A DNA stretch of 64,000 nucleotides from assembly GCA_016788905.1 (NCBI GenBank), contig JAEURZ010000008.1, positions 25,494 through 89,493 of the forward strand, read 5' to 3'. Positions within the stretch are counted from its first letter, which is position 1. Each line of letters starts with the position of its first letter. The DNA is from Elusimicrobiota bacterium. GTDB taxonomy: Bacteria > Elusimicrobiota > Elusimicrobia > FEN-1173. A program made the translations under genes and the position numbers. The notes beneath the pieces were generated by a model. That model had not been told where the DNA came from. It made no database searches and saw nothing but the letters and a program-made list of their open reading frames with translations. Below, piece after piece: positions 9,615 through 25,896 of this stretch.

Positions 9615-10622
9615 TCAACGGGTGGGGATGGGTTCGAATGTTATTCTACGGGATGATCCGGCGGGCGGTTTTTCTCCCATGAAAACCAAACGGATTTCGT
9701 TTAAATAGAAATTGCGAACAACGTATGTCCCAACAACCTGAGCCCGGGCGCTGGCTAGCGCCTCGCGAGCGGTCCCTGTGTATGACTCTTCGATAAACCC
9801 ATAGATCCGGACGCGTGTTTCAGGATAGCGCCTTAGAATAGCCCCGAGGGCGTCCAAGGTTTCAAGGGAGGGGGTTTGAAGTATCGCGCTCCCCGGGTCG
9901 AAAGTGATCGGAGCGATTCGACCCGAATCAATAGAGTTCTGCAAACGATCCAGCTCTTCCTCGGCAAGAAGCGTGGGATCAATTTCGACCTCCTCCTCAT
10001 TAGCGAGAAGTGGAATTTCCAGGTCAGCGTCTGAAATATCAACCTCAGGTTTTAAGGGAACCCAACTTTGGGGGAGAAAAAAACGTAGGCTTACCGCCCC
10101 ATTGAATGTCCGCATGTCTTGATTGTTTTGGCGTACGCGGGCAAACTGTCGGACCCCCACCTCAAGGGCGAGATCCTGCATATCAGAGATCTTGAGGCGA
10201 ATTCCTAGAAAAAAACCGGCGGTCCAGCCTGTTTGGGATTTTTGATGGGAGAGGTCCGTTCGCTTGTTTCGGCTCATTCCAAGGTCCGCCAGGAGATAAG
10301 GGGTGTAAAGTCGTGTCCAGGGAAAATCCCGTTGCACCCATCCTGTGATGGGTGCAAGAGTAAGGTCGTTTTCGGAAGATGTTGTTGATGTCACTCTGTA
10401 AGAGGCATACTGCCCTCCAATGGTCCAGTAATCCGAAAGTCGGTGCCCCAGCCGTCCGCCAAGCATTCCTGTTTTTCCGAACAGTTCCGAAAGGCCCGCG
10501 GGTGAAAAAACAGATCCCACCCCCGCTTGAAGATCAAAAAGAATAGGGGAACGATCTTCTCCCCAAAGAAAGACAGAGGGAAATAAGAAAAATAAGCCAA
10601 CGAAAACAAGAGAGGATTTCAA
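9615..10622 (-). CDS. outer-membrane beta-barrel protein with C-terminal OmpA-like peptidoglycan-binding domain
   Basis: Signal peptide, alternating beta-strand N-terminal half, and a C-terminal ITFDPGSA...RVRIYGF...A...RA OmpA_C-like pattern. Confidence 0.7.
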   Translation of the reverse strand: MKSSLVFVGLFFLFPSVFLWGEDRSPILFDLQAGVGSVFSPAGLSELFGKTGMLGGRLGHRLSDYWTIGGQYASYRVTSTTSSENDLTLAPITGWVQRDFPWTRLYTPYLLADLGMSRNKRTDLSHQKSQTGWTAGFFLGIRLKISDMQDLALEVGVRQFARVRQNNQDMRTFNGAVSLRFFLPQSWVPLKPEVDISDADLEIPLLANEEEVEIDPTLLAEEELDRLQNSIDSGRIAPITFDPGSAILQTPSLETLDALGAILRRYPETRVRIYGFIEESYTGTAREALASARAQVVGTYVVRNFYLNEIRLVFMGEKPPAGSSRRITFEPIPTR

Positions 10623-18319: not shown

Positions 18320-18607
18320 TTATAAAAAGAGTTCCAGGGCTTCATACCCCGTCATGCCGGGTTTGACGCCTCGATCCGTTGCGGCGGCACTGACCGCCAC
18401 CACAGGCGCCGCCAAAAGTTCATCCACGGTTTTCACCCCTCGGACGATGGCGGCGGGCGCCTTGACTTTGTCGGCCGTGTGGAGGTCCAGATATCCGCAC
18501 ATCACAAACCCTAGGGACCCCTTGGCCAAGACGAGGGGAGCGCCTGGCAACGGGATTTCTATTCCTTCGCCCTTTTTGTTTCCGATAACAATTTCATGTG
18601 TTTGCAA
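18320..18607 (-). CDS. DUF1805 (YunC-like) domain protein
   Basis: 95 aa with G-F-V-M-C-G-Y-L and IVRGV motifs. It has a TTG start preceded by a perfect AGGAGG Shine-Dalgarno sequence at a 5-nt spacing. Confidence 0.65.
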   Translation of the reverse strand: MQTHEIVIGNKKGEGIEIPLPGAPLVLAKGSLGFVMCGYLDLHTADKVKAPAAIVRGVKTVDELLAAPVVAVSAAATDRGVKPGMTGYEALELFL

Positions 18608-18694
18608 TGGAGCCTCCTTTTAAAAAATAATGTTACAAGAAATTTACAACTTCTTAAGATAGGCTTTCGTCGCGATCATTATACTAAAGACACG

Positions 18695-21600
18695 ATGCTT
18701 CGCTTTCGACGTGTGGTTGGGATGGCGGTCGCCGCAACCCTCCTCCTCACGAATGTTGTGGCGACCTACGCCGTCGAAAAAAGCCTCTGGGAGGAACGGC
18801 GCGCCGCGGTCACACGGTCCCCGCGTTTTGCGCGACTTCTTCCGACCACTCCCGGCCTGTTGTCCCGGGAGAATAAATTTTTCGGCGGGGGATCAACAAC
18901 CTCCCAGCCCCCGTCGAATTTTAAGGACCTCGCCCTTTCGTTTGACGTGGCGTCAGCGGTGTTGCCCTTCGGGGCAATAGGGGCGGTTCATGTGGGGCGC
19001 CGGGGGGCGCCGGTGGTGTTCCTCCTGCAAGATGTCCATGGCAATGAGGGTGCCCAAAGAAACATTGGCGGTCTCCTCAATGCGTTGGCTGCCCGTGGCG
19101 TTGCCTTCGTTGGTCTTGAGGGTGCCTGGGGACCGATCGACTTAGAGGCCTATTCCCGACACCCTTCTCCTCCCTCTGTTTCTCTTGTGGCCGAGGCCCT
19201 TCGTGTTTCGGGATACCTGAGCGGCGCGGAATGGGCCGGGTTAACCGCTTCGAATCCTCTCACGTTGGTGGGAGTGGAAACTCCCACCCTGTATCAGGCG
19301 AACGTGGCTGCCGCGAAAGAATGCGTTTCTCGCCGCCCGGCCGTTGATGAGTTTCTTCGCGCGCTTACCTCTAATCTCGAAATTAAAAAAACCGAACTCT
19401 ATTCCGAACCACTAAAATCTTTTGATTCTCATAGGGGAGCCTATTGGGATGGACGTGAAAGTTTGGGGAATTTTGCCCGACACCTTGCCGGTTTTCCAGG
19501 TGTCAATAAGAAACCCGTTCCTCAAGTGAGACGTTTCCTTAAGGCCATCGAATGGGAGAATCGTTTGGATTTTGAAAAAATCGAAACGGACCGGGGGAAT
19601 CTTATGGCTCGGTTGTCCCGGGAACTCCATTCAAAGGAGCTGGACCTTCTCCTCTCTCGTGCCGTGGAATACCGTGCGGGGAAAACAATTAACGGTGATT
19701 TTTTCGAGACTTTACGAACCCTCTGTGCGAGAAAAGATATCGCTTTGGCATCCTACCCGATTTTTTCCGATTATATTTCGTTTGTGGGATTTGTTCAGGG
19801 GATCCACCGTGCAGAACTTTTGGATGAACTGATGGCCTGGGAAGTGGACGTGGGGTCCCATCTCGCTCAGTCGGATGAAGAGAAGACCCTCCTTGAAATT
19901 GATCGAGACGTTTCCCTTCTTCGTCAATTGTTGGAAAACGAAATGTCCCCGGAATCTTGGGCGATGTATGGAAAAAGGAAGTCCTCCATTGTTTCTCTCC
20001 CGGCACGACTGGTGTTGTATTTTGATTTTCAAGAACCCGCAGGTGGGTTGGCCTCTTTCATTCGGCCCCATGAGGATTTTTGCCGGCTGGCCATGGAAAG
20101 GGATGGTGCCTTGGTCAAAAACTTTGTGTCCCACGTGCCATTTGAAAAGGGGAACCCATCCGTTCTGGTGACAGGGGGGTTTCACACCCCGGGAATCCAA
20201 TCCGAACTCCATAAGAAAGGGTTTTCAACCGTTACTGTAACCCCCCGCCTTGAGAAGGTCGAAGGCAAACCCCTGGACGTCTTCGCTCGGGATCCCCTCC
20301 CCTTTGATCAGCTCTTTGCGGGGAAACCCATAAGTCTTCCTTCGGAACTCCTGCTCAACGATGCGGACCAGAGCAAAAGGCTGGTGGGTGGGCCGTCGAG
20401 CGCGGTCGCCATGGTGGGACTGCTTCCTGGGGAATGGGAGGGGGACCTCAATGCTTGGTTGGAGGATCAAGGGTTCGAGGTGGATTCAATGTCTCGCGAT
20501 GGGGATGGGCTGGTTCGACTTGAAGTCGTTTTTCAAGGGACTTCGATCGGGTTTCTTGTCGGACGCAGGGGTTTGATCGATGCGACGGATAAAGGGAAGG
20601 CGTTCGACAAAAAACAAATTTTATCTTTACCGAACGGGGATTCTGTCCTTGTCTACGTAAACGCCCCTCCAGAAAACGTCGCCTCCTTTGTCTCGGTCCT
20701 ATGGGCCCCATGGGAACTTCGTGTTCGAAGTACCTTCCTCCTCGTCCGTCAAACTTTTTTGAATGGGGGATCAATTTTTGCCCCGTCCGGCCTTGGCTCA
20801 TTAACGGAAATGAATCATGGGATGAGACGTTTGCTTTCCATCCTCATTCCTATTCATTGGCTCAGGGGAATGAACATGATCCCTGACGGTTATTCTTGGG
20901 ATTCTCCGAGGTCCGATGGGGGAGAAATTCCTCTCCTCCTAGGAATTGCGGATTTAGTGCGGGGTATTGCCAAATCCGAGGATCATTCGGTCCATCGACC
21001 TGGCCTTTCGAAAGAGAGCGCTCGGGTCCAGGTTTCTCCCCTTGGGCTTACGGTTCAGCTCACCCTCTTCGATCCTTCTGGACAGGAAGTGGGGCGTGCC
21101 ATCGTGGATGGGAAGAGGGGGGAGGTTGTTCTTCACCAGGTGGTCATTAAACCTGGAAAAAACACGTTTTCCGAAGACCTCTTGAGGGGAGTGGCCAAAG
21201 AATTCCTGGTGATGAAAGGGCAGGGGATTCTTTTTCTCGGTGGGGTGACCGACCCGCGTGTGAAACAAGCCGCTCAGCGCCTGTTTGATCAAAACACCCT
21301 ATCCGTGGCTCCTAAAATGTTTGGCCGAAATACTTCCCATGTCCAGTGGCCCGATGCGGTGGACGTTGCCTCCCCGGAATTTTCATCCTTAATGGTTGGG
21401 TCTGATCCCACCGATATAAGAGGATCTTTTTCGCTCTCTGCGAGAAAGGAGTTTTGGCCCATTGAAGATCTTCCAGCGGTCGAAAGCAAAGAGGGGCGGG
21501 GCCGGGACCCAAAAGTCGAATTCTTTCCCACGCGGGATAGGATGCGAATCAGAGAATACGCGCATTTGGGTGTACGCGATAACGATCTCCGGGATCTCCA

Positions 21601-24397
21601 CGATGTCCACATAAACGGGAATCAAGTCGGAACGGTGATCTTTTCAAAAACGCCGAAGGGCGTTTCGCTGAGGGATATTTTAGTCTTCCCGAATTGGAGA
21701 GGGCAAGGGGTTGGCAAAGCCATATACGCGGCGCTGGCGAAGCAAGCCTCTTTGAGTCTGCATCCATTCCGAAATGAAATGGGGGATCCCATTTCATTTG
21801 AGGGAAGGAACCTGGCTAACCCAGGTTCTTACGCTATTCGATCGGGTTTGTTTGTGAGCGGGACAATGGAAATTGTTCCCGTTGGGACAAGATCTTCTGA
21901 TGAAAATTTTGAGCCTATTGAAGGCTGGGAGAACCCCGTTAAGGAGGGGACCCGAGAATTTGACCATTTGGTGGGGGAGGAAAACATCGATGTCAAAGGT
22001 TTGAATAGGGGGAAATACTCCATCCATTTTAACATGCGTGGGGTAACTCTCCCGGAAATAGTGGGTGCCGCGGAACGGGACCTGCTGTTGGAGCAACGGA
22101 TACGATTTGCAGAGCAGAAAACAGTGGAGCGCCTATTCAACCGTCTGGAAGAGAATTCATTTACCATTGTCAATGATGAAATCGGGAAAACGCTCCTCAT
22201 GCTGGGCGACGGTGGGGTGGAGCTGGCCCGCGCTCGGTTCTTTGGCAAACGGGGTGAAATGACAATAGCCCATACGGAAATCCATTCCGGAGGGAAAGTC
22301 ACGGCACTTAGGCTACTAATGGAAATCGGCCGTATTGGACTTTTCGAGGGAGGGGTTGGGCGACTGTTGATTCGGGACACGGGCGATAGGGGTGTGGTGG
22401 AAGCGGCCAAAACTCTTTTTGAACCAGAATCCCTTAGGGTGGCACCTCACCGATTTGATCGGTCGGTCACGAACTCGCGTTGGGGTGACCGAGTGGATCC
22501 TTTCAGTGAAGAAACCATCGATCGTGTATTAGGGACCCCGCATCAAACGGTTGATGTGAGCGGATCTCTTTCTATGAAAGTGTGCGAAATTCTCTGGCCC
22601 CCCATGGATTCGCTTCAAGAAAAAGAAGGGGTCCGTTTGGTCGATTCCCCGGTTGTGGAAATAGTTGAAGCGAGAAACCCACGGGACCCAGATGAGTTTT
22701 TGGTTTTTTCCGGGCGTGAAGTCGTTGGAAAGATGAGCGTCGAAGTTAACACGGATGTTGTCCTCCAAAAAAAAATCCAAATCAATCATTCGCCTGTTCA
22801 AAACCGAGGAAGGGGATATGGGTCTGCCGCTCTTCTCTCCTCTGCCAAGTTGGCCGCCCGGATCTTGTTCCCAAAAACAAATGACCACGGGGGGGCGGTT
22901 CCATTGGAATTCCGAAACGTTTTGAACCCGTGGGTTTTTGAACATGCGAAAAGGAACATTTTTATTCCCGGAACTTTGGAAATTCTTGAGGCAGGGACCG
23001 TTTGGCCTCTCTATGATCTTCCTCTCTCGCTGGGTTGGGGAAATGCTTTAAATGAACGGGATCCCCGGTTTGATGTTTTAACCACTCAAAACTTCAATGA
23101 TGATGGTGAATACAAAGTTCGTTTCCACCTCCGTGGGGAACTTCAACCAGAAATAGTTGAGTTGGCTCGAGGAGATTGGACAAGAACAAACAGTTTCTTG
23201 GGTCTGGGCATCGGGTTCACCTTCGAACCCATCCTTCTGTCGTTCCTGGGCATGGGTTACCTGATCGCAATGGTCTACAAGGACAAAATCCTGGATTGGC
23301 TCGCTAAAAACAACGTGCCCCCGTGGGTACGAAGAGGAGTGAACAGCTATGTTCCCGACCTCTCCCACGTTCGAATCAAGTTTTTTCGCATGATCTTTCA
23401 CCAGGGGCAGCGAAGACCTAACGCGATGGCACCGCGAATTGATCATGATCTCTCAACGGAAGAACGTCATGCTTTGTGGGAGTCTTTAATGTCTCTTTCT
23501 CCTCACCCCTTTGAAGGGATGCCGCCATTGATGGAAATAAACCTGGGGACGTTGGGTGGAATGGAAGTGCCCTCTTCATGGGCCCCTGATTCCTTCGCAA
23601 GTGATGAATCTTTGGCTCTCATGGTGCGGGCGGCCTCGGGATCCAAAGCGGAGGTTCATCAACGGATCGCTTACAATGCAACCTTTTTCAACGAAGAACG
23701 TGGGGAAGAGACCGCTGCCCAAGCCGGAGCCCACGCGGCGCTTTACGACGAGGTGAAATTTCCCTGGGCCACCCCTATGGATTGGAAGTTCACCCAGCGT
23801 CTTGTCACGATGCTATTCCAAAACGGAGGGAATAGGCGTTCGCGGTTGGCCGCTTTCCAGTTGGCCTACAATTCGGTTCGGGCGGCTGTTTGGCGTGGGC
23901 GATTGATCGGAGGAACTCTCGCATCAAGGAACGGGTTGGTTCTAAACCTATCACCGCTTTTTGACCCGGACAGTGGGAAAGTCGTTTCCGAGGTGGCGGC
24001 AACTCTTCTCAACCTGGGAATGGCGCTTCACTTAGAGAGCCCTTCCGGGGAATTTCCTATCGAGCTGTTGGTGGATTTTCCGCTTGAAAAGGATCGGGTC
24101 GAGGCGCGCATCAAAGATTTCATCCCAGACTATGCCAAGTTCGAAAAGTCGGGCCGACTTCGTGTCCGGGTGAGGGGAGTAGACAAGGACGTATTCAAGG
24201 ACGGCCGTATCTCTTTAATGGGCCTCCATGAAGGATTTTCCCTAACAGCGGTGGGCATCAGCGAGGATCATCTCCTCACGGATGAAATCCAACCGTTGAA
24301 AGCACGCGGAATAACGTTTGTTCCCTGGCACTCTATCCTTTCAAAAAAAGTTGAGGATGCTTTAAAAAAGATGGTCTTTATAAGAATTTCAGCTTAA
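18695..24397 (+). CDS. giant (1,900-aa) membrane-anchored protein of unknown function with duplicated double-GNAT-like modules
   Basis: A single uninterrupted ORF. ATG 18695 gives an N-terminal signal/anchor (VVGMAVAATLLLTNVVATYA). There are two GNAT motif-A matches (RGQGVG at 21698-21715, QNRGRG at 22799-22816) and an internal TM segment around 23196-23280. The 33 extra codons in the ORF track would overlap the divergent gene's start. Confidence 0.75.
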   Translation: MLRFRRVVGMAVAATLLLTNVVATYAVEKSLWEERRAAVTRSPRFARLLPTTPGLLSRENKFFGGGSTTSQPPSNFKDLALSFDVASAVLPFGAIGAVHVGRRGAPVVFLLQDVHGNEGAQRNIGGLLNALAARGVAFVGLEGAWGPIDLEAYSRHPSPPSVSLVAEALRVSGYLSGAEWAGLTASNPLTLVGVETPTLYQANVAAAKECVSRRPAVDEFLRALTSNLEIKKTELYSEPLKSFDSHRGAYWDGRESLGNFARHLAGFPGVNKKPVPQVRRFLKAIEWENRLDFEKIETDRGNLMARLSRELHSKELDLLLSRAVEYRAGKTINGDFFETLRTLCARKDIALASYPIFSDYISFVGFVQGIHRAELLDELMAWEVDVGSHLAQSDEEKTLLEIDRDVSLLRQLLENEMSPESWAMYGKRKSSIVSLPARLVLYFDFQEPAGGLASFIRPHEDFCRLAMERDGALVKNFVSHVPFEKGNPSVLVTGGFHTPGIQSELHKKGFSTVTVTPRLEKVEGKPLDVFARDPLPFDQLFAGKPISLPSELLLNDADQSKRLVGGPSSAVAMVGLLPGEWEGDLNAWLEDQGFEVDSMSRDGDGLVRLEVVFQGTSIGFLVGRRGLIDATDKGKAFDKKQILSLPNGDSVLVYVNAPPENVASFVSVLWAPWELRVRSTFLLVRQTFLNGGSIFAPSGLGSLTEMNHGMRRLLSILIPIHWLRGMNMIPDGYSWDSPRSDGGEIPLLLGIADLVRGIAKSEDHSVHRPGLSKESARVQVSPLGLTVQLTLFDPSGQEVGRAIVDGKRGEVVLHQVVIKPGKNTFSEDLLRGVAKEFLVMKGQGILFLGGVTDPRVKQAAQRLFDQNTLSVAPKMFGRNTSHVQWPDAVDVASPEFSSLMVGSDPTDIRGSFSLSARKEFWPIEDLPAVESKEGRGRDPKVEFFPTRDRMRIREYAHLGVRDNDLRDLHDVHINGNQVGTVIFSKTPKGVSLRDILVFPNWRGQGVGKAIYAALAKQASLSLHPFRNEMGDPISFEGRNLANPGSYAIRSGLFVSGTMEIVPVGTRSSDENFEPIEGWENPVKEGTREFDHLVGEENIDVKGLNRGKYSIHFNMRGVTLPEIVGAAERDLLLEQRIRFAEQKTVERLFNRLEENSFTIVNDEIGKTLLMLGDGGVELARARFFGKRGEMTIAHTEIHSGGKVTALRLLMEIGRIGLFEGGVGRLLIRDTGDRGVVEAAKTLFEPESLRVAPHRFDRSVTNSRWGDRVDPFSEETIDRVLGTPHQTVDVSGSLSMKVCEILWPPMDSLQEKEGVRLVDSPVVEIVEARNPRDPDEFLVFSGREVVGKMSVEVNTDVVLQKKIQINHSPVQNRGRGYGSAALLSSAKLAARILFPKTNDHGGAVPLEFRNVLNPWVFEHAKRNIFIPGTLEILEAGTVWPLYDLPLSLGWGNALNERDPRFDVLTTQNFNDDGEYKVRFHLRGELQPEIVELARGDWTRTNSFLGLGIGFTFEPILLSFLGMGYLIAMVYKDKILDWLAKNNVPPWVRRGVNSYVPDLSHVRIKFFRMIFHQGQRRPNAMAPRIDHDLSTEERHALWESLMSLSPHPFEGMPPLMEINLGTLGGMEVPSSWAPDSFASDESLALMVRAASGSKAEVHQRIAYNATFFNEERGEETAAQAGAHAALYDEVKFPWATPMDWKFTQRLVTMLFQNGGNRRSRLAAFQLAYNSVRAAVWRGRLIGGTLASRNGLVLNLSPLFDPDSGKVVSEVAATLLNLGMALHLESPSGEFPIELLVDFPLEKDRVEARIKDFIPDYAKFEKSGRLRVRVRGVDKDVFKDGRISLMGLHEGFSLTAVGISEDHLLTDEIQPLKARGITFVPWHSILSKKVEDALKKMVFIRISA
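21040..22066 (+). repeat. protein-level repeat module A of the giant ORF (approximate borders)
   Basis: Aligns by eye with module B: GKRGEVVLHQ/GKRGEMTIAH, LSVAPKMFGRNTSHVQW/LRVAPHRFDRSVTNSRW, and HFNMRGVTLPEIV/RFHLRGELQPEIV. Confidence 0.6.
22150..23161 (+). repeat. protein-level repeat module B of the giant ORF (approximate borders)
   Basis: See module A. The anchors are offset by 1134 nt at GKRGE and 1095 nt at PEIV. Confidence 0.6.
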
Positions 24398-24435
24398 CCC
24401 CAATGCGGTTTAGATAAGCCTTTTTTCCGTCGATC
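24398..24435 (+). repeat. IS left terminal inverted repeat
   Basis: CCCCAATGCGGTTTAGATAAGCCTTTTTTCCGTCGATC. Confidence 0.9.
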
Positions 24436-24495
24436 ATTTGTAGAATAATTCCGTAGTTAAACGGCCGACACTAAGCGGTTTCTACGGAGAGCTCT

Positions 24496-25830
24496 TTGAA
24501 ACTAACATCCTCGCTGATCTCGTTGTCTGATGGGACGTTGCCAGCCTCATTTAAGGGATTGAAATCCTTGGTGGCTGTGGAGTGGGTGCGTGAGGCGCTG
24601 AGGCGTGGCGGGACGGCGAAGGTCCGCACCCGGAAGATGACGGTAGAAGATGTCGTGTGGCTGCTGATCGGGATGTCGTTGTATCGAAATCGGCCGATGG
24701 TGGATGTGGCGCACCACTTGGATCTGGTGATGCCGGACAAGAAGGGTCGGCCCGGGACATTGAGCAAAGGGGCGATTCCCCAATCCCGCGAAAGTCTGGG
24801 CGTGGACCCTGTCCGAGCGCTGTTTATGATCACCGCGAAGCACTGGGCGCAGGAGTCCGGGGAGCGTTATCGGTGGCGGGGATTGATGGTGCTGGGGGCG
24901 GATGGGTCGACACTGCGAATTCCAGACAGCGTGGAAAATCGATCCAAATTCGGATTGCCGCCGGGGAGTCGGAGCACGGCGGGGTATCCGCAGGTGCGGG
25001 TGGCGGTGTTAATGGTATTGAGGAGCCATCAGTGGCTGGCGTTCGATTTTGCGGATTTTGGGACCGGAGAAGGGACGGTAGTGTGGCCGCTAATTCAGCG
25101 TGTGCCAGAGCGTTCTTTGACAGTCATGGATCGGTATTCCATTGAACACGCGCAGTTGTGGGGGCTGACACAACGGGGAGAAGATCGGCATTGGTTGTTG
25201 CGCGCCCGAAAGAATTTACGCAGGACGGTGGTCAAACGGTTGGGGAAGGGAGACGATTTGGTGGAGATGCCGATCGACCGTAGCCGTCGGAGAAAAGACC
25301 CATCCCTTCCGGAATCGTTCTTGGCGCGGGCGGTGCGGTATGAGCGTAAGGGGTATCGGCCGCAGACTCTCCTAACGTCTCTGTTGGACAATAAAGCGTA
25401 TCCGGCTCAAGAGATCGTTAAGCTGTATCATGAGCGGTGGGAATTGGAGCTGGGGTATGACGAGCTGAAGACGGATGTGTTGGAGCGGGAAGAGGCGATT
25501 CGCTCTCAAACACCGGACGGAGTTCGCCAAGAGTTGTGGGGGATGGCGATCGCCTACAACTTAGTTCGACGGGAAATGGACATGGCGGAACGAGAATTGG
25601 GATTGCCGCCGCGACGAATCAGTTTTGTGTTCTGTCTAAGGCTGATCCGGGACTTTTTTTACTGGTCGGCGATAACGCAAACGCCAGGAGCTTTGCCAAA
25701 GCGCCTGGAACAGATGCGCGTGGATCTCAGGCGATTGGTCTTACCGCCACGACGCGGGGATCGGCATTCCCCGCGTCACGTCAAAATCAAGATGAGCGGT
25801 TACTCGCGGAATCAAGGGCATCCGCGATGA
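24496..25830 (+). CDS. IS4 family DDE transposase
   Basis: The Y-(2)-R-(3)-E-(6)-K signature is present as YHERWELELGYDELK. Candidate DDE Asp residues lie in LGADGS and VMDRY, and the N-terminus is IS4-like. TTG is the first start-like codon after the in-frame TAA at 24472. The stop lies inside the right repeat. Confidence 0.9.
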   Translation: MKLTSSLISLSDGTLPASFKGLKSLVAVEWVREALRRGGTAKVRTRKMTVEDVVWLLIGMSLYRNRPMVDVAHHLDLVMPDKKGRPGTLSKGAIPQSRESLGVDPVRALFMITAKHWAQESGERYRWRGLMVLGADGSTLRIPDSVENRSKFGLPPGSRSTAGYPQVRVAVLMVLRSHQWLAFDFADFGTGEGTVVWPLIQRVPERSLTVMDRYSIEHAQLWGLTQRGEDRHWLLRARKNLRRTVVKRLGKGDDLVEMPIDRSRRRKDPSLPESFLARAVRYERKGYRPQTLLTSLLDNKAYPAQEIVKLYHERWELELGYDELKTDVLEREEAIRSQTPDGVRQELWGMAIAYNLVRREMDMAERELGLPPRRISFVFCLRLIRDFFYWSAITQTPGALPKRLEQMRVDLRRLVLPPRRGDRHSPRHVKIKMSGYSRNQGHPR

Positions 25831-25866
25831 TCGACAGAAAAAAGGCTTATCTAAACCGCATTGGGG
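25829..25866 (-). repeat. IS right terminal inverted repeat
   Basis: Its reverse complement reads CCCCAATGCGGTTTAGATAAGCCTTTTTTCTGTCGATC, one mismatch from the left repeat. Confidence 0.9.
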
Positions 25867-25896
25867 TTAAGGTGATTTTTCTTTTCCCTTCTTTTC

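Follow-up and report, generated by a model that had tools for sequence, protein, structure and literature searches.

The 64,000-nucleotide (nt) stretch of DNA analysed here (hereafter referred to as the window) belongs to contig JAEURZ010000008.1 of the Elusimicrobiota assembly GCA_016788905.1, and one open frame, the longest open reading frame (ORF) of the region, extends from position 18596 to position 24397 of its plus strand. Translation from the ATG at position 18695 yields a product of 1,900 amino acids (aa) plus a stop codon, beginning with MLRFRRVVGMAVAATLLLTNVVATYAVEKSLWEERR (hereafter, the gene and its product are referred to as the giant gene and the giant protein); this N-terminus (MLRFRR...) has the same start position as in the orthologues. 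The preliminary description of the locus had reported a single uninterrupted 5.7-kb ORF, and the probability of 1,900 codons without a stop at the base composition of the window is indeed ~1e-37. The giant gene had also been described as divergent from DUF1805, rlmD and mfd, and the domain matches of the neighbouring genes agree, with DUF1805, an rlmD-like methyltransferase (PF05958) and mfd lying upstream on the minus strand. On the 3' side, the giant gene is followed by an IS4-family transposase and then by sdhCAB. It is an ordinary-looking, uncharacterised chromosomal gene. Our analysis shows that its product is a membrane-associated multi-enzyme of modular build, in which a TIKI-like head is followed by two double-GNAT modules, a conserved hydrophobic helix and a tail specific to its clade, and that the giant protein is a member of a very large family, as yet unnamed, that is characteristic of Elusimicrobiota and Omnitrophota. 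The layout of domains given in the preliminary description is essentially correct. The features of the gene are as follows:

18695-24397 (+): complete coding sequence (CDS), from the ORF list and translation, a 99.5% identical copy and intact syntenic orthologues
18695-18775 (+): signal-peptide-like N-terminus, aa 1-27, with an RFRR n-region, a 12-residue hydrophobic core, T-N and A-T-Y-A/VE (hydropathy)
18776-18946 (+): juxtamembrane segment, aa 28-84, with a conserved motif E28-x-x-L-W-x-x-R-R (invariant columns among close homologues) followed by a low-confidence Gly/Ser/Pro-rich stretch
18947-20371 (+): head domain, aa 85-559, with a probable TIKI/ChaN/erythromycin-esterase-like alpha/beta core (invariant residues, AF2, sub-threshold matches)
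19031-19039, 19118-19120, 20099-20101 and 20183-20185 (+): putative catalytic residues D113 and H115, E142, R469 and H497, respectively (39-homologue alignment)
19283-20128 (+): all-helical insertion of ~280 aa, aa 197-478, between the halves of the head core (AF2 secondary structure)
20372-21007 (+): linker, aa 560-771, with the motif PLDVFARDPLPFD (conserved), a small segment rich in beta structure and, at aa ~715-735, a conserved stretch of weak hydrophobicity
21008-22114 (+): module 1, aa 772-1140, tandem GNAT (PF00583, RibT, AF2, Foldseek)
22148-23188 (+): module 2, aa 1152-1498, paralogous tandem GNAT (BLASTP, jackhmmer mapping, motif alignment)
23192-23308 (+): hydrophobic cassette, aa 1500-1538, SFLGLGIGFTFEPILLSFLGMGYLIAMVY followed by the amphipathic KDKILDWLAK (hydropathy 1.6, AF2 helix)
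23309-24394 (+): C-terminal region, aa 1539-1900, with an alpha/beta domain at aa ~1660-1900 and the end ...FIRISA (homologue comparison, AF2)

The head domain and its family

A search of a collection of 5.8 billion proteins yielded 45 relatives of 1.2-3.3 thousand amino acids (kaa), mostly from Elusimicrobia metagenome-assembled genomes (MAGs). The only region common to all 45 first-pass relatives corresponded to aa ~1-550 and was always located at their own N-terminus (local BLAST), and in about 12 close relatives the similarity extended to the modules, the hydrophobic segment and the C-terminal ~240 aa. When 1.84 billion cluster representatives (50% identity clusters) were searched with a head-domain profile, 10,238 clusters were matched at E ≤1e-3, including 7,128 at E ≤1e-30. 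Among the 10,238, the best 150 were all full-length head matches, in proteins of 599-7,623 aa, with the head starting at residue 13-169. The cluster representative P0001, which is 99.5% identical to the giant protein, matched the head profile (positions 1-487) with an E value of 2.2e-167, and the giant protein displays the N-terminal signal-like helix, the full-length head within the first ~170 residues and the variable cargo by which the family is defined. Where the source gives an organism name, it is Elusimicrobia/Elusimicrobiota or Candidatus Omnitrophica/Omnitrophota. The earlier designation of the protein as an orphan cannot, therefore, be maintained, because its head defines a family of >10,000 protein clusters and syntenic orthologues exist. 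Nor does the whole protein fall into a family that has already been characterised, its own family being uncharacterised. No model of Pfam or NCBIfam recognises the head domain in this protein, and GNAT was the sole match in whole-protein searches of Pfam, NCBIfam and PDB sequences. Word-indexed queries with the C-terminal region or module 1 alone recovered only P0046 (a fragment on a 3.7-kb contig), but did not recover the giant protein itself, its cluster or its close homologues either, and so provide no proof of absence. We place high confidence in the domain identities and the family membership of the giant protein.

The cargo behind the head comprises S-adenosylmethionine (SAM)-methyltransferases, GNAT, SIS, triose-phosphate isomerase (TIM), PPDK_N/phosphoenolpyruvate (PEP)-utilisers, APH, HATPase_c, GlnD-type nucleotidyltransferase, M23/M48/M50 peptidases and HEAT/TPR arrays, and much of the cargo sequence of the family has no Pfam match. 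Multi-enzyme giants bearing signals or transmembrane (TM) helices have already been catalogued for Omnitrophota in two preprints (West-Roberts et al. 2023; 2026 'complete-genome view of Omnitrophota'). These long or giant proteins resemble the one described here in combining a signal peptide and/or TM helices with mixed cargo (methyltransferase, GNAT, HATPase_c, PPDK_N, HEAT/TPR, sugar-metabolism enzymes), and at least two members of the head family (P0044, P0085) are labelled Omnitrophica. The giant protein differs from them in its length of only 1.9 kaa and in coming from an Elusimicrobiota-type genome, and a TIKI/TraB/ChaN-like head is mentioned in neither preprint (no Tiki, TraB or erythromycin). 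The parts of the giant protein are drawn from known superfamilies (TIKI/Ere/ChaN, GNAT), and the giant multi-enzyme phenomenon is already known for Omnitrophota.

Apparently complete central-metabolism enzymes were observed behind the head in P0044 (triose-phosphate isomerase at 253 bits) and P0036 (PPDK_N), and family members of 4.9-6.3 kaa are labelled at source as, for example, 'isocitrate lyase' or 'pyruvate/oxaloacetate carboxyltransferase / GMP synthase-like amidotransferase'; the members with such cargo or names are P0044, P0036, P0062 and P0103. The Elusimicrobia MAG harbouring homologue P0015 contains another very large gene (L007, positions 1-1292), encoding 2,761 aa with a weak DUF900 match, located 7 kb upstream and beside transposases; large genes may be frequent in these Elusimicrobia genomes. 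A mobile-element polyvalent protein and a defence system were considered and rejected: tblastn searches of plasmids and phages yielded no match to the giant protein, and no PADLOC defence model matched, which constitutes evidence against a mobile-element or defence role. No partner genes were conserved in the neighbourhoods of three distant family members.

The preliminary description had proposed a ~500-aa domain with a hydrolase-like motif order. A conserved domain was indeed found at aa ~85-560, and the motif order corresponds to a TIKI/ChaN/erythromycin-esterase-type constellation. In the alignment of 39 head sequences (23-61% identity), H115, Q121, E142, G143, G193, F462, R469, G494, G495, H497 and P517 were invariant, and D113 was at least 90% conserved; the corresponding motifs are VVFLLQDVH(115), VGLE(142)GA, ER(469)D and LVTGGFH(497). 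AF2 modelling of the head with this alignment gave a predicted local distance difference test score (pLDDT) >90 for aa 80-520, with alternating strands and helices and core strands at aa 93-99, 107-113, 138-141, 145-148, 190-194, 489-494 and 511-517. The signature of the TIKI superfamily consists of two His and two Glu residues together with a basic residue that is also conserved, arranged as E-x-H ... E ... R ... H; the essential residues of the MARTX effector RRSP are E3900-x-H3902, E3930, R4001 and H4030, and the structures of the superfamily include HopBA1 and Bcr135, a protein of the Ere family (PMC6254334). Escherichia coli YbaP (PF01963) has the same layout (GSIH41 ... VE67 ... QR228N ... 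GALH252). The head constellation D113-x-H115, E142, R469, H497 displays this catalytic signature, with Asp rather than Glu as the first acidic residue, and the motif spacings are +27 and +28 in the head, +28 and +29 in RRSP, and +26 and +24 in YbaP.

The order and spacing of the putative catalytic residues are those of the TIKI/ChaN/Ere proteins (EreC 6XCQ, Bcr135 3B55, ChaN 2G5G, RRSP, HopBA1 5T09, YbaP): an acidic-x-His on the first strand, a Glu ~27 residues further on, on the next strand, and, towards the end, an Arg separated by ~28 residues from a G-x-x-His. The core of the head is predicted by AF2 to be of the parallel-sheet alpha/beta type. In addition to the Asp replacing the first Glu, the head differs from these proteins in its invariant, family-specific Gln121 and its ~280-aa helical insertion, and it is always N-terminal in multi-kiloresidue proteins, whereas the TIKI relatives stand alone or are swappable effectors. 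PF04187 (ChaN/Tiki) was matched by four of 13 homologues, with a best E value of 4.6e-6 on the full-length head, and PF01963 by one of the 13; with core-only constructs, from which the insertion had been removed, the best PF04187 score was 24.9 bits (cut-off 27.7), and the matches lay on the C-terminal, R...GxxH end of the profiles.

Other results weigh against this assignment. The head of the giant protein itself has no Pfam match. A Foldseek search with the 633-aa head model in full, insertion and disordered tails included, ranked EreC top and HopBA1 14th, but with non-significant values (E 0.8-1.8, TM-score 0.2-0.27). In hhalign comparisons with YbaP, the R...H motif was aligned with a probability of only 0.2%. 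Profile searches of PDB sequences, with and without the insertion, retrieved no TIKI-family chain, the best match being a 67-aa protein at chance level. All matches of the head to TIKI-family proteins, by profile or by fold, are therefore sub-threshold. On balance, the head very probably represents a divergent branch of the TIKI/TraB/ChaN/erythromycin-esterase superfamily in which the catalytic residues are intact, and it is predicted, with some reserve, to be catalytically active.

GNAT modules, hydrophobic cassette and C-terminal domain

The two duplicated modules of ~350 aa recognised in the preliminary description were recovered at aa 772-1140 and 1152-1498, and are homologous to each other (29% identity over 358 aa, E 3e-30, BLASTP). 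PF00583 matched at aa 960-1018 with 24.1 bits against a cut-off of 20.7, and passed this cut-off in module 1 only; module 2 is assigned to GNAT because it is homologous to module 1. The module profile retrieved only GNAT chains from PDB sequences, including RibT. The motif A loops (R/Q-x-x-G-x-G/A) are RGQGVG at aa 1002-1007 (21698-21715) and RGRGYG at aa 1371-1376 (22805-22822), and this motif is kept in nearly all of 23 aligned module copies. The AF2 model of aa 760-1900 had a mean pLDDT of 65, with values of 70-90 for module 1, and the top 50 Foldseek matches to it were all GNATs, among them VipF (E 2.8e-5, probability 1.0), 3TT2 (E 3.6e-4), Eis2, MshD, FemX and MprF, with 250-400 aligned columns. 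As modelled, each module is a double GNAT, in which the N-terminal GNAT lacks motif A and the C-terminal GNAT retains it. MshD and VipF also keep the acyl-CoA loop in the C-terminal GNAT only. The motif A previously attributed to each module is thus present in both, but the single GNAT implied by it is not. The natural reading is that the protein has two competent acyl-CoA sites, as predicted from the sequence, and the earlier characterisation of the cargo as a multi-acyltransferase is a fair one, the GNAT modules being real; the envelope-modifying or effector-like role suggested alongside it is conjecture.

The modules resemble the tandem-GNAT enzymes (Legionella VipF 7WX7, MshD 2C27, Eis and the FemX/MprF type), each module of ~360 aa consisting of two GNAT folds in tandem. 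They differ from them in sequence (only ~12% identity), in the presence of two modules within a membrane-associated protein of 1,900 aa, and in the conserved hydrophobic cassette that comes after each of the two. The linker preceding module 1 had been estimated at ~300 aa; it exists, but is shorter, at about 210 aa (aa 560-771). Directly before module 1, at aa 715-735 (nt ~20837-20899), homologues have LL.LFF.P.....K.WVVP and the giant protein has RRLLSILIPIHWLRGMNMIP; the hydropathy of this segment reaches 1.6 in some homologues and is below 1 in the giant protein. A hidden TM helix at this position (aa ~715-735) was considered and rejected, as the segment is only weakly hydrophobic in the giant protein and the flanking charges are unsuitable.

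One or two TM helices had been placed at positions 23196-23280, and one hydrophobic segment was found there (aa 1500-1528, nt 23192-23278), the only strongly hydrophobic internal segment of the protein. AF2 predicts a helix at aa 1512-1538 with a pLDDT of 86-90. The cassette to which this segment belongs has the consensus G.PFDPL.G...A.....M..K..I..WL and was found in 10 homologues, after GNAT modules, once or twice per protein; from its hydropathy and model, it is a candidate transmembrane or re-entrant anchor. This 'PFDP' cassette behaves as a mobile unit after GNAT modules and may occur twice in one protein (P0002, P0007, P0008, P0009). The C-terminal region of ~370 aa had been described as devoid of recognisable motifs, in agreement with the lack of any Pfam, NCBIfam or PDB-sequence match for the region and for its terminal domain. 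Outside the giant protein, this domain (~240 aa) is confined to the 12 closest relatives, where it is likewise C-terminal, and its AF2 model is alpha/beta with a pLDDT of 55-85.

Membrane topology and proposed function

The N-terminal signal or anchor suggested previously was borne out by a hydrophobic segment at aa 7-27. The small-x-small site following it recurs in distant homologues (AHA/AE, AYS/TE, WA/VE ...). The F-R-R motif raised the possibility of a Tat signal, which was rejected, as the twin arginine is missing in distant homologues. Residues 41-75, beyond this segment, have a pLDDT <50. No segment of aa 560-1499 has a hydropathy of 1.4 or more, and the helix at aa 1500-1528 has a K/R-rich flank on its C-terminal side (KDK..K....RR). 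From the signal and this flank, a type-I-like topology can be proposed, in which aa 28-1500 (head and GNATs) would be exported and the C-terminal domain would remain in the cytoplasm. The chances of this topology are only about even, because exported GNATs would be without acetyl-coenzyme A (acetyl-CoA) unless inside another cell. The order signal, TIKI-like domain, anchor in the giant protein also resembles that of Tiki1/2 and enterococcal PrgY/TraB. Metazoan Tiki has a type-I layout. In contrast to Tiki1/2 and PrgY/TraB, ~900 aa of acyltransferase cargo lie here between the TIKI-like domain and the hydrophobic helix, and there is no multi-TM block directly after the head, as there is in PrgY/TraB.

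The head would act as an active hydrolase (an esterase or a site-specific peptidase), and the GNAT modules would catalyse acyl-CoA-dependent transfer to a macromolecular, membrane-proximal or envelope-associated acceptor; under this topology, the whole protein would be an exported, type-I-like, membrane-tethered hydrolase and double acyltransferase. The role of the head would probably be a generic one (processing, docking or sensing), because the head is constant before every type of cargo. We rank this exported, membrane-tethered enzyme first, including the sub-case of an action on other cells, although we would give it no better than an equal chance of being correct. Several observations count against it. 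In the orthologue P0004, a SAM-methyltransferase (aa 736-863) lies in the same segment as the head and the GNATs. In P0009, GNAT halves precede the cassette, and a methyltransferase and a full GNAT module follow it. GNATs with conserved acetyl-CoA motifs conflict with export. Finally, the neighbourhoods contain no secretion system, immunity gene or envelope-biosynthesis operon as a conserved neighbour. As the cassette occurs up to twice per homologue, with GNAT or SAM-methyltransferase domains on both sides, it may not separate compartments. The location of the GNAT modules and the C-terminal domain on opposite sides of the membrane, as proposed in the preliminary description, fits the charge distribution around aa 1500-1538 and is plausible, but it is not established in view of these homologues. 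TM-like segments, from one to five in number, lie within the 330 aa that follow the head in 65 (40%) of 164 sampled family members, and are absent from this stretch in the other 99. The same topological tension is found in an Omnitrophota preprint for longer proteins with similar cargo.

An alternative ranked second, and which we consider possible but tentative, is that of a scaffold on the inner side of the cytoplasmic membrane, tethered there by the N-terminal helix and the cassettes, acting as a signal-anchor or as re-entrant hairpins; the head, the GNATs and the C-terminal domain would all be in the cytoplasm, and proteins, lipids or precursors would be acylated with acetyl-CoA. The conservation of motif A in nearly all module copies, the occurrence of SAM-methyltransferases and GNATs on both sides of the cassette in homologues, and the predominance of ATP-, PEP-, SAM- or CoA-dependent cargo in the family (TIM, PPDK_N, APH, HATPase) are all in keeping with such an arrangement. 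A conserved F-(D/E)-P also interrupts the cassette, in a manner consistent with a hairpin, and similar methyltransferase/GNAT/HATPase cargo in long proteins is read as facing the cytoplasm in an Omnitrophota preprint. However, the three Arg residues before the hydrophobic core and the small-x-small site after it form a classical N-in, exported layout, the K/R-rich flank C-terminal of the aa 1500-1528 helix points in the same direction, and no TM-grade segment between the head and the GNATs would return the chain to the cytoplasm.

We consider it unlikely that the giant protein is a delivered, effector- or toxin-like protein comparable to MARTX and the large AB toxins, the third-ranked possibility. 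It would be exported and act in the cytoplasm of another cell, the cassette would aid membrane insertion or translocation, and acetyl-CoA would be available in the target cell, reconciling an export-type signal with cofactor-dependent domains. VipF and Eis, the closest GNAT structures, are secreted effectors. GNAT-bearing giant secreted proteins have been proposed as predation factors in Omnitrophota, and RRSP of MARTX, PMT and HopBA1 all make use of the TIKI fold (PMC6254334). Nevertheless, the locus of the gene is a conserved housekeeping one, in which neither an immunity gene nor a secretion system is present and the only mobile-element context is a recent insertion sequence (IS), and the plasmid, phage and PADLOC searches were empty. 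Furthermore, the TIKI domain is the constant head of the family rather than a swappable effector, the family cargo (TIM, PPDK, HEAT/TPR) is not toxin-like, and a C-terminal membrane anchor would hold the protein on the producer cell. The RTX or other trafficking repeats, autoprocessing cysteine protease domain (CPD), adjacent type 1 secretion system (T1SS), other secretion or immunity genes and swappable C-terminal toxin domains of MARTX and polymorphic toxins were not found either, as Pfam and NCBIfam yielded no such domains and the neighbours are housekeeping genes.

By analogy with Tiki and RRSP, the head could also be a site-specific peptidase maturing or releasing the enzyme cargo, in which case the giant gene and the >10,000 related giant ORFs would encode membrane-targeted bacterial "polyproteins" that have an N-terminal engine for processing or docking in common. 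We regard this as improbable; if true, it would account by a single mechanism for the so far unexplained multi-enzyme giants of Elusimicrobiota and Omnitrophota. A probable TIKI-type hydrolase at the head provides a concrete hypothesis for the feature shared by these giants, with H115, E142, R469 and H497 as mutable residues. The fusion of Sec-type signals to acetyl-CoA-, SAM- or ATP-dependent enzymes is a paradox, and there is a clear annotation gap, in that no fewer than 10^4 protein clusters, a large number of them 2-7 kaa in length, start with a head lacking any Pfam or NCBIfam model, in phyla of which hardly any members have been cultured. The main value of the giant gene is as a small representative of this very large uncharacterised family: at 1.9 kaa, and with three recognisable enzyme units, it is among the smaller members and offers a tractable entry to the family.

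Orthologues, gene integrity and flanking sequences

A genome-collection scan with the single protein as query found nothing, whereas a scan with an alignment of close homologues found four loci. An orthologue occupies the equivalent position, preceded by mfd and rlmD and followed by sdh, in three Elusimicrobia MAGs (loci L001-L003), of which two originate from Danish wastewater plants. The syntenic ORFs encode 1,741, 2,456 and 2,339 aa and are all uninterrupted. Their cargo varies and includes half-modules, between one and three full modules and an additional methyltransferase, indicating that the head and tail are kept and that the middle is reshuffled; the variation in module number between syntenic orthologues suggests frequent tandem duplication or deletion within the gene. 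Half-modules, consisting of the C-terminal GNAT alone, occur among the homologues P0002, P0007, P0008 and P0009.

The same ORF is present in a second assembly (Logan SRR5576002, L005), with 99.5% identity and 20 nt differences, 10 synonymous and 10 non-synonymous, corresponding to a ratio of non-synonymous to synonymous polymorphism (pN/pS) of 0.32. All but one of the 20 differences (19/20) lie in aa 1420-1800 (window positions 22953-24093), in the last quarter of the gene; this clustering could reflect local recombination or weaker constraint on the C-terminal region. The GC content of the gene is 52.3%, against 52.8% for the whole window and 55-56% for the immediate flanks, and a value of ~50% is reached in module 2 only; the composition of the gene is, therefore, not anomalous. 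The GC content of 48-50% given in the preliminary description applies, approximately, to module 2 alone and not to the gene as a whole.

The flanking features are:

18608-18694 (no strand): divergent intergenic region (window alignment with L001-L003)
24389-25875 (+): IS4-family insertion sequence, outside the protein (inverted repeats and transposase domains)

The IS noted previously at the 3' end lies directly at the stop codon, and comprises an IS4-family transposase and apparent inverted repeats. The repeats (24389-24437 and 25827-25875) are 49 nt each and 96% complementary, and the transposase ORF (24496-25830) matches Nterm_IS4 and DDE_Tnp_1. The left repeat arm overlaps the final 9 nt of the giant CDS; the insertion site appears to be a TTAA holding the TAA stop codon of the gene, leaving the natural C-terminus ...FIRISA intact. 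The strain contig L005 stops 25 nt inside the element, as expected for a repeated sequence, and no ORF of the size of the IS transposase follows the gene at the orthologous loci L001-L003.

The adjoining IS and the concentration of strain differences in the last quarter might suggest a decaying gene, a mis-assembled chimera or a gene-calling artefact, but this possibility is effectively refuted for practical purposes, and we attach almost no credence to it, given the 1,900 intact codons (chance ~1e-37), a natural C-terminus agreeing with that of the homologues, the same ORF in an independent assembly with a pN/pS of 0.32, the intact orthologues, catalytic residues invariant in relatives of 23-60% identity, and GC content and GC content at third codon positions (GC3) ordinary for the window. 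Decay or relaxed selection, raised in the preliminary description, was not observed, as judged from the intact orthologues and this pN/pS value.

No Shine-Dalgarno sequence was visible upstream of the start of the giant gene, and a scan for promoters and terminators around the gene gave results at chance level. A segment of ~60 nt located 5' of the start codon (window positions 18625-18694) is conserved in L002 and L003 (about positions 9930-10000), but not in L001. This element contains two copies of TTACAAG, a CTTAAG palindrome, TATACT and, immediately 5' of the ATG, CATTATACTAAAGACA. Because of this element, homologues are called 12 codons further upstream by some gene callers; the element may be a shared divergent promoter/operator or a leader.

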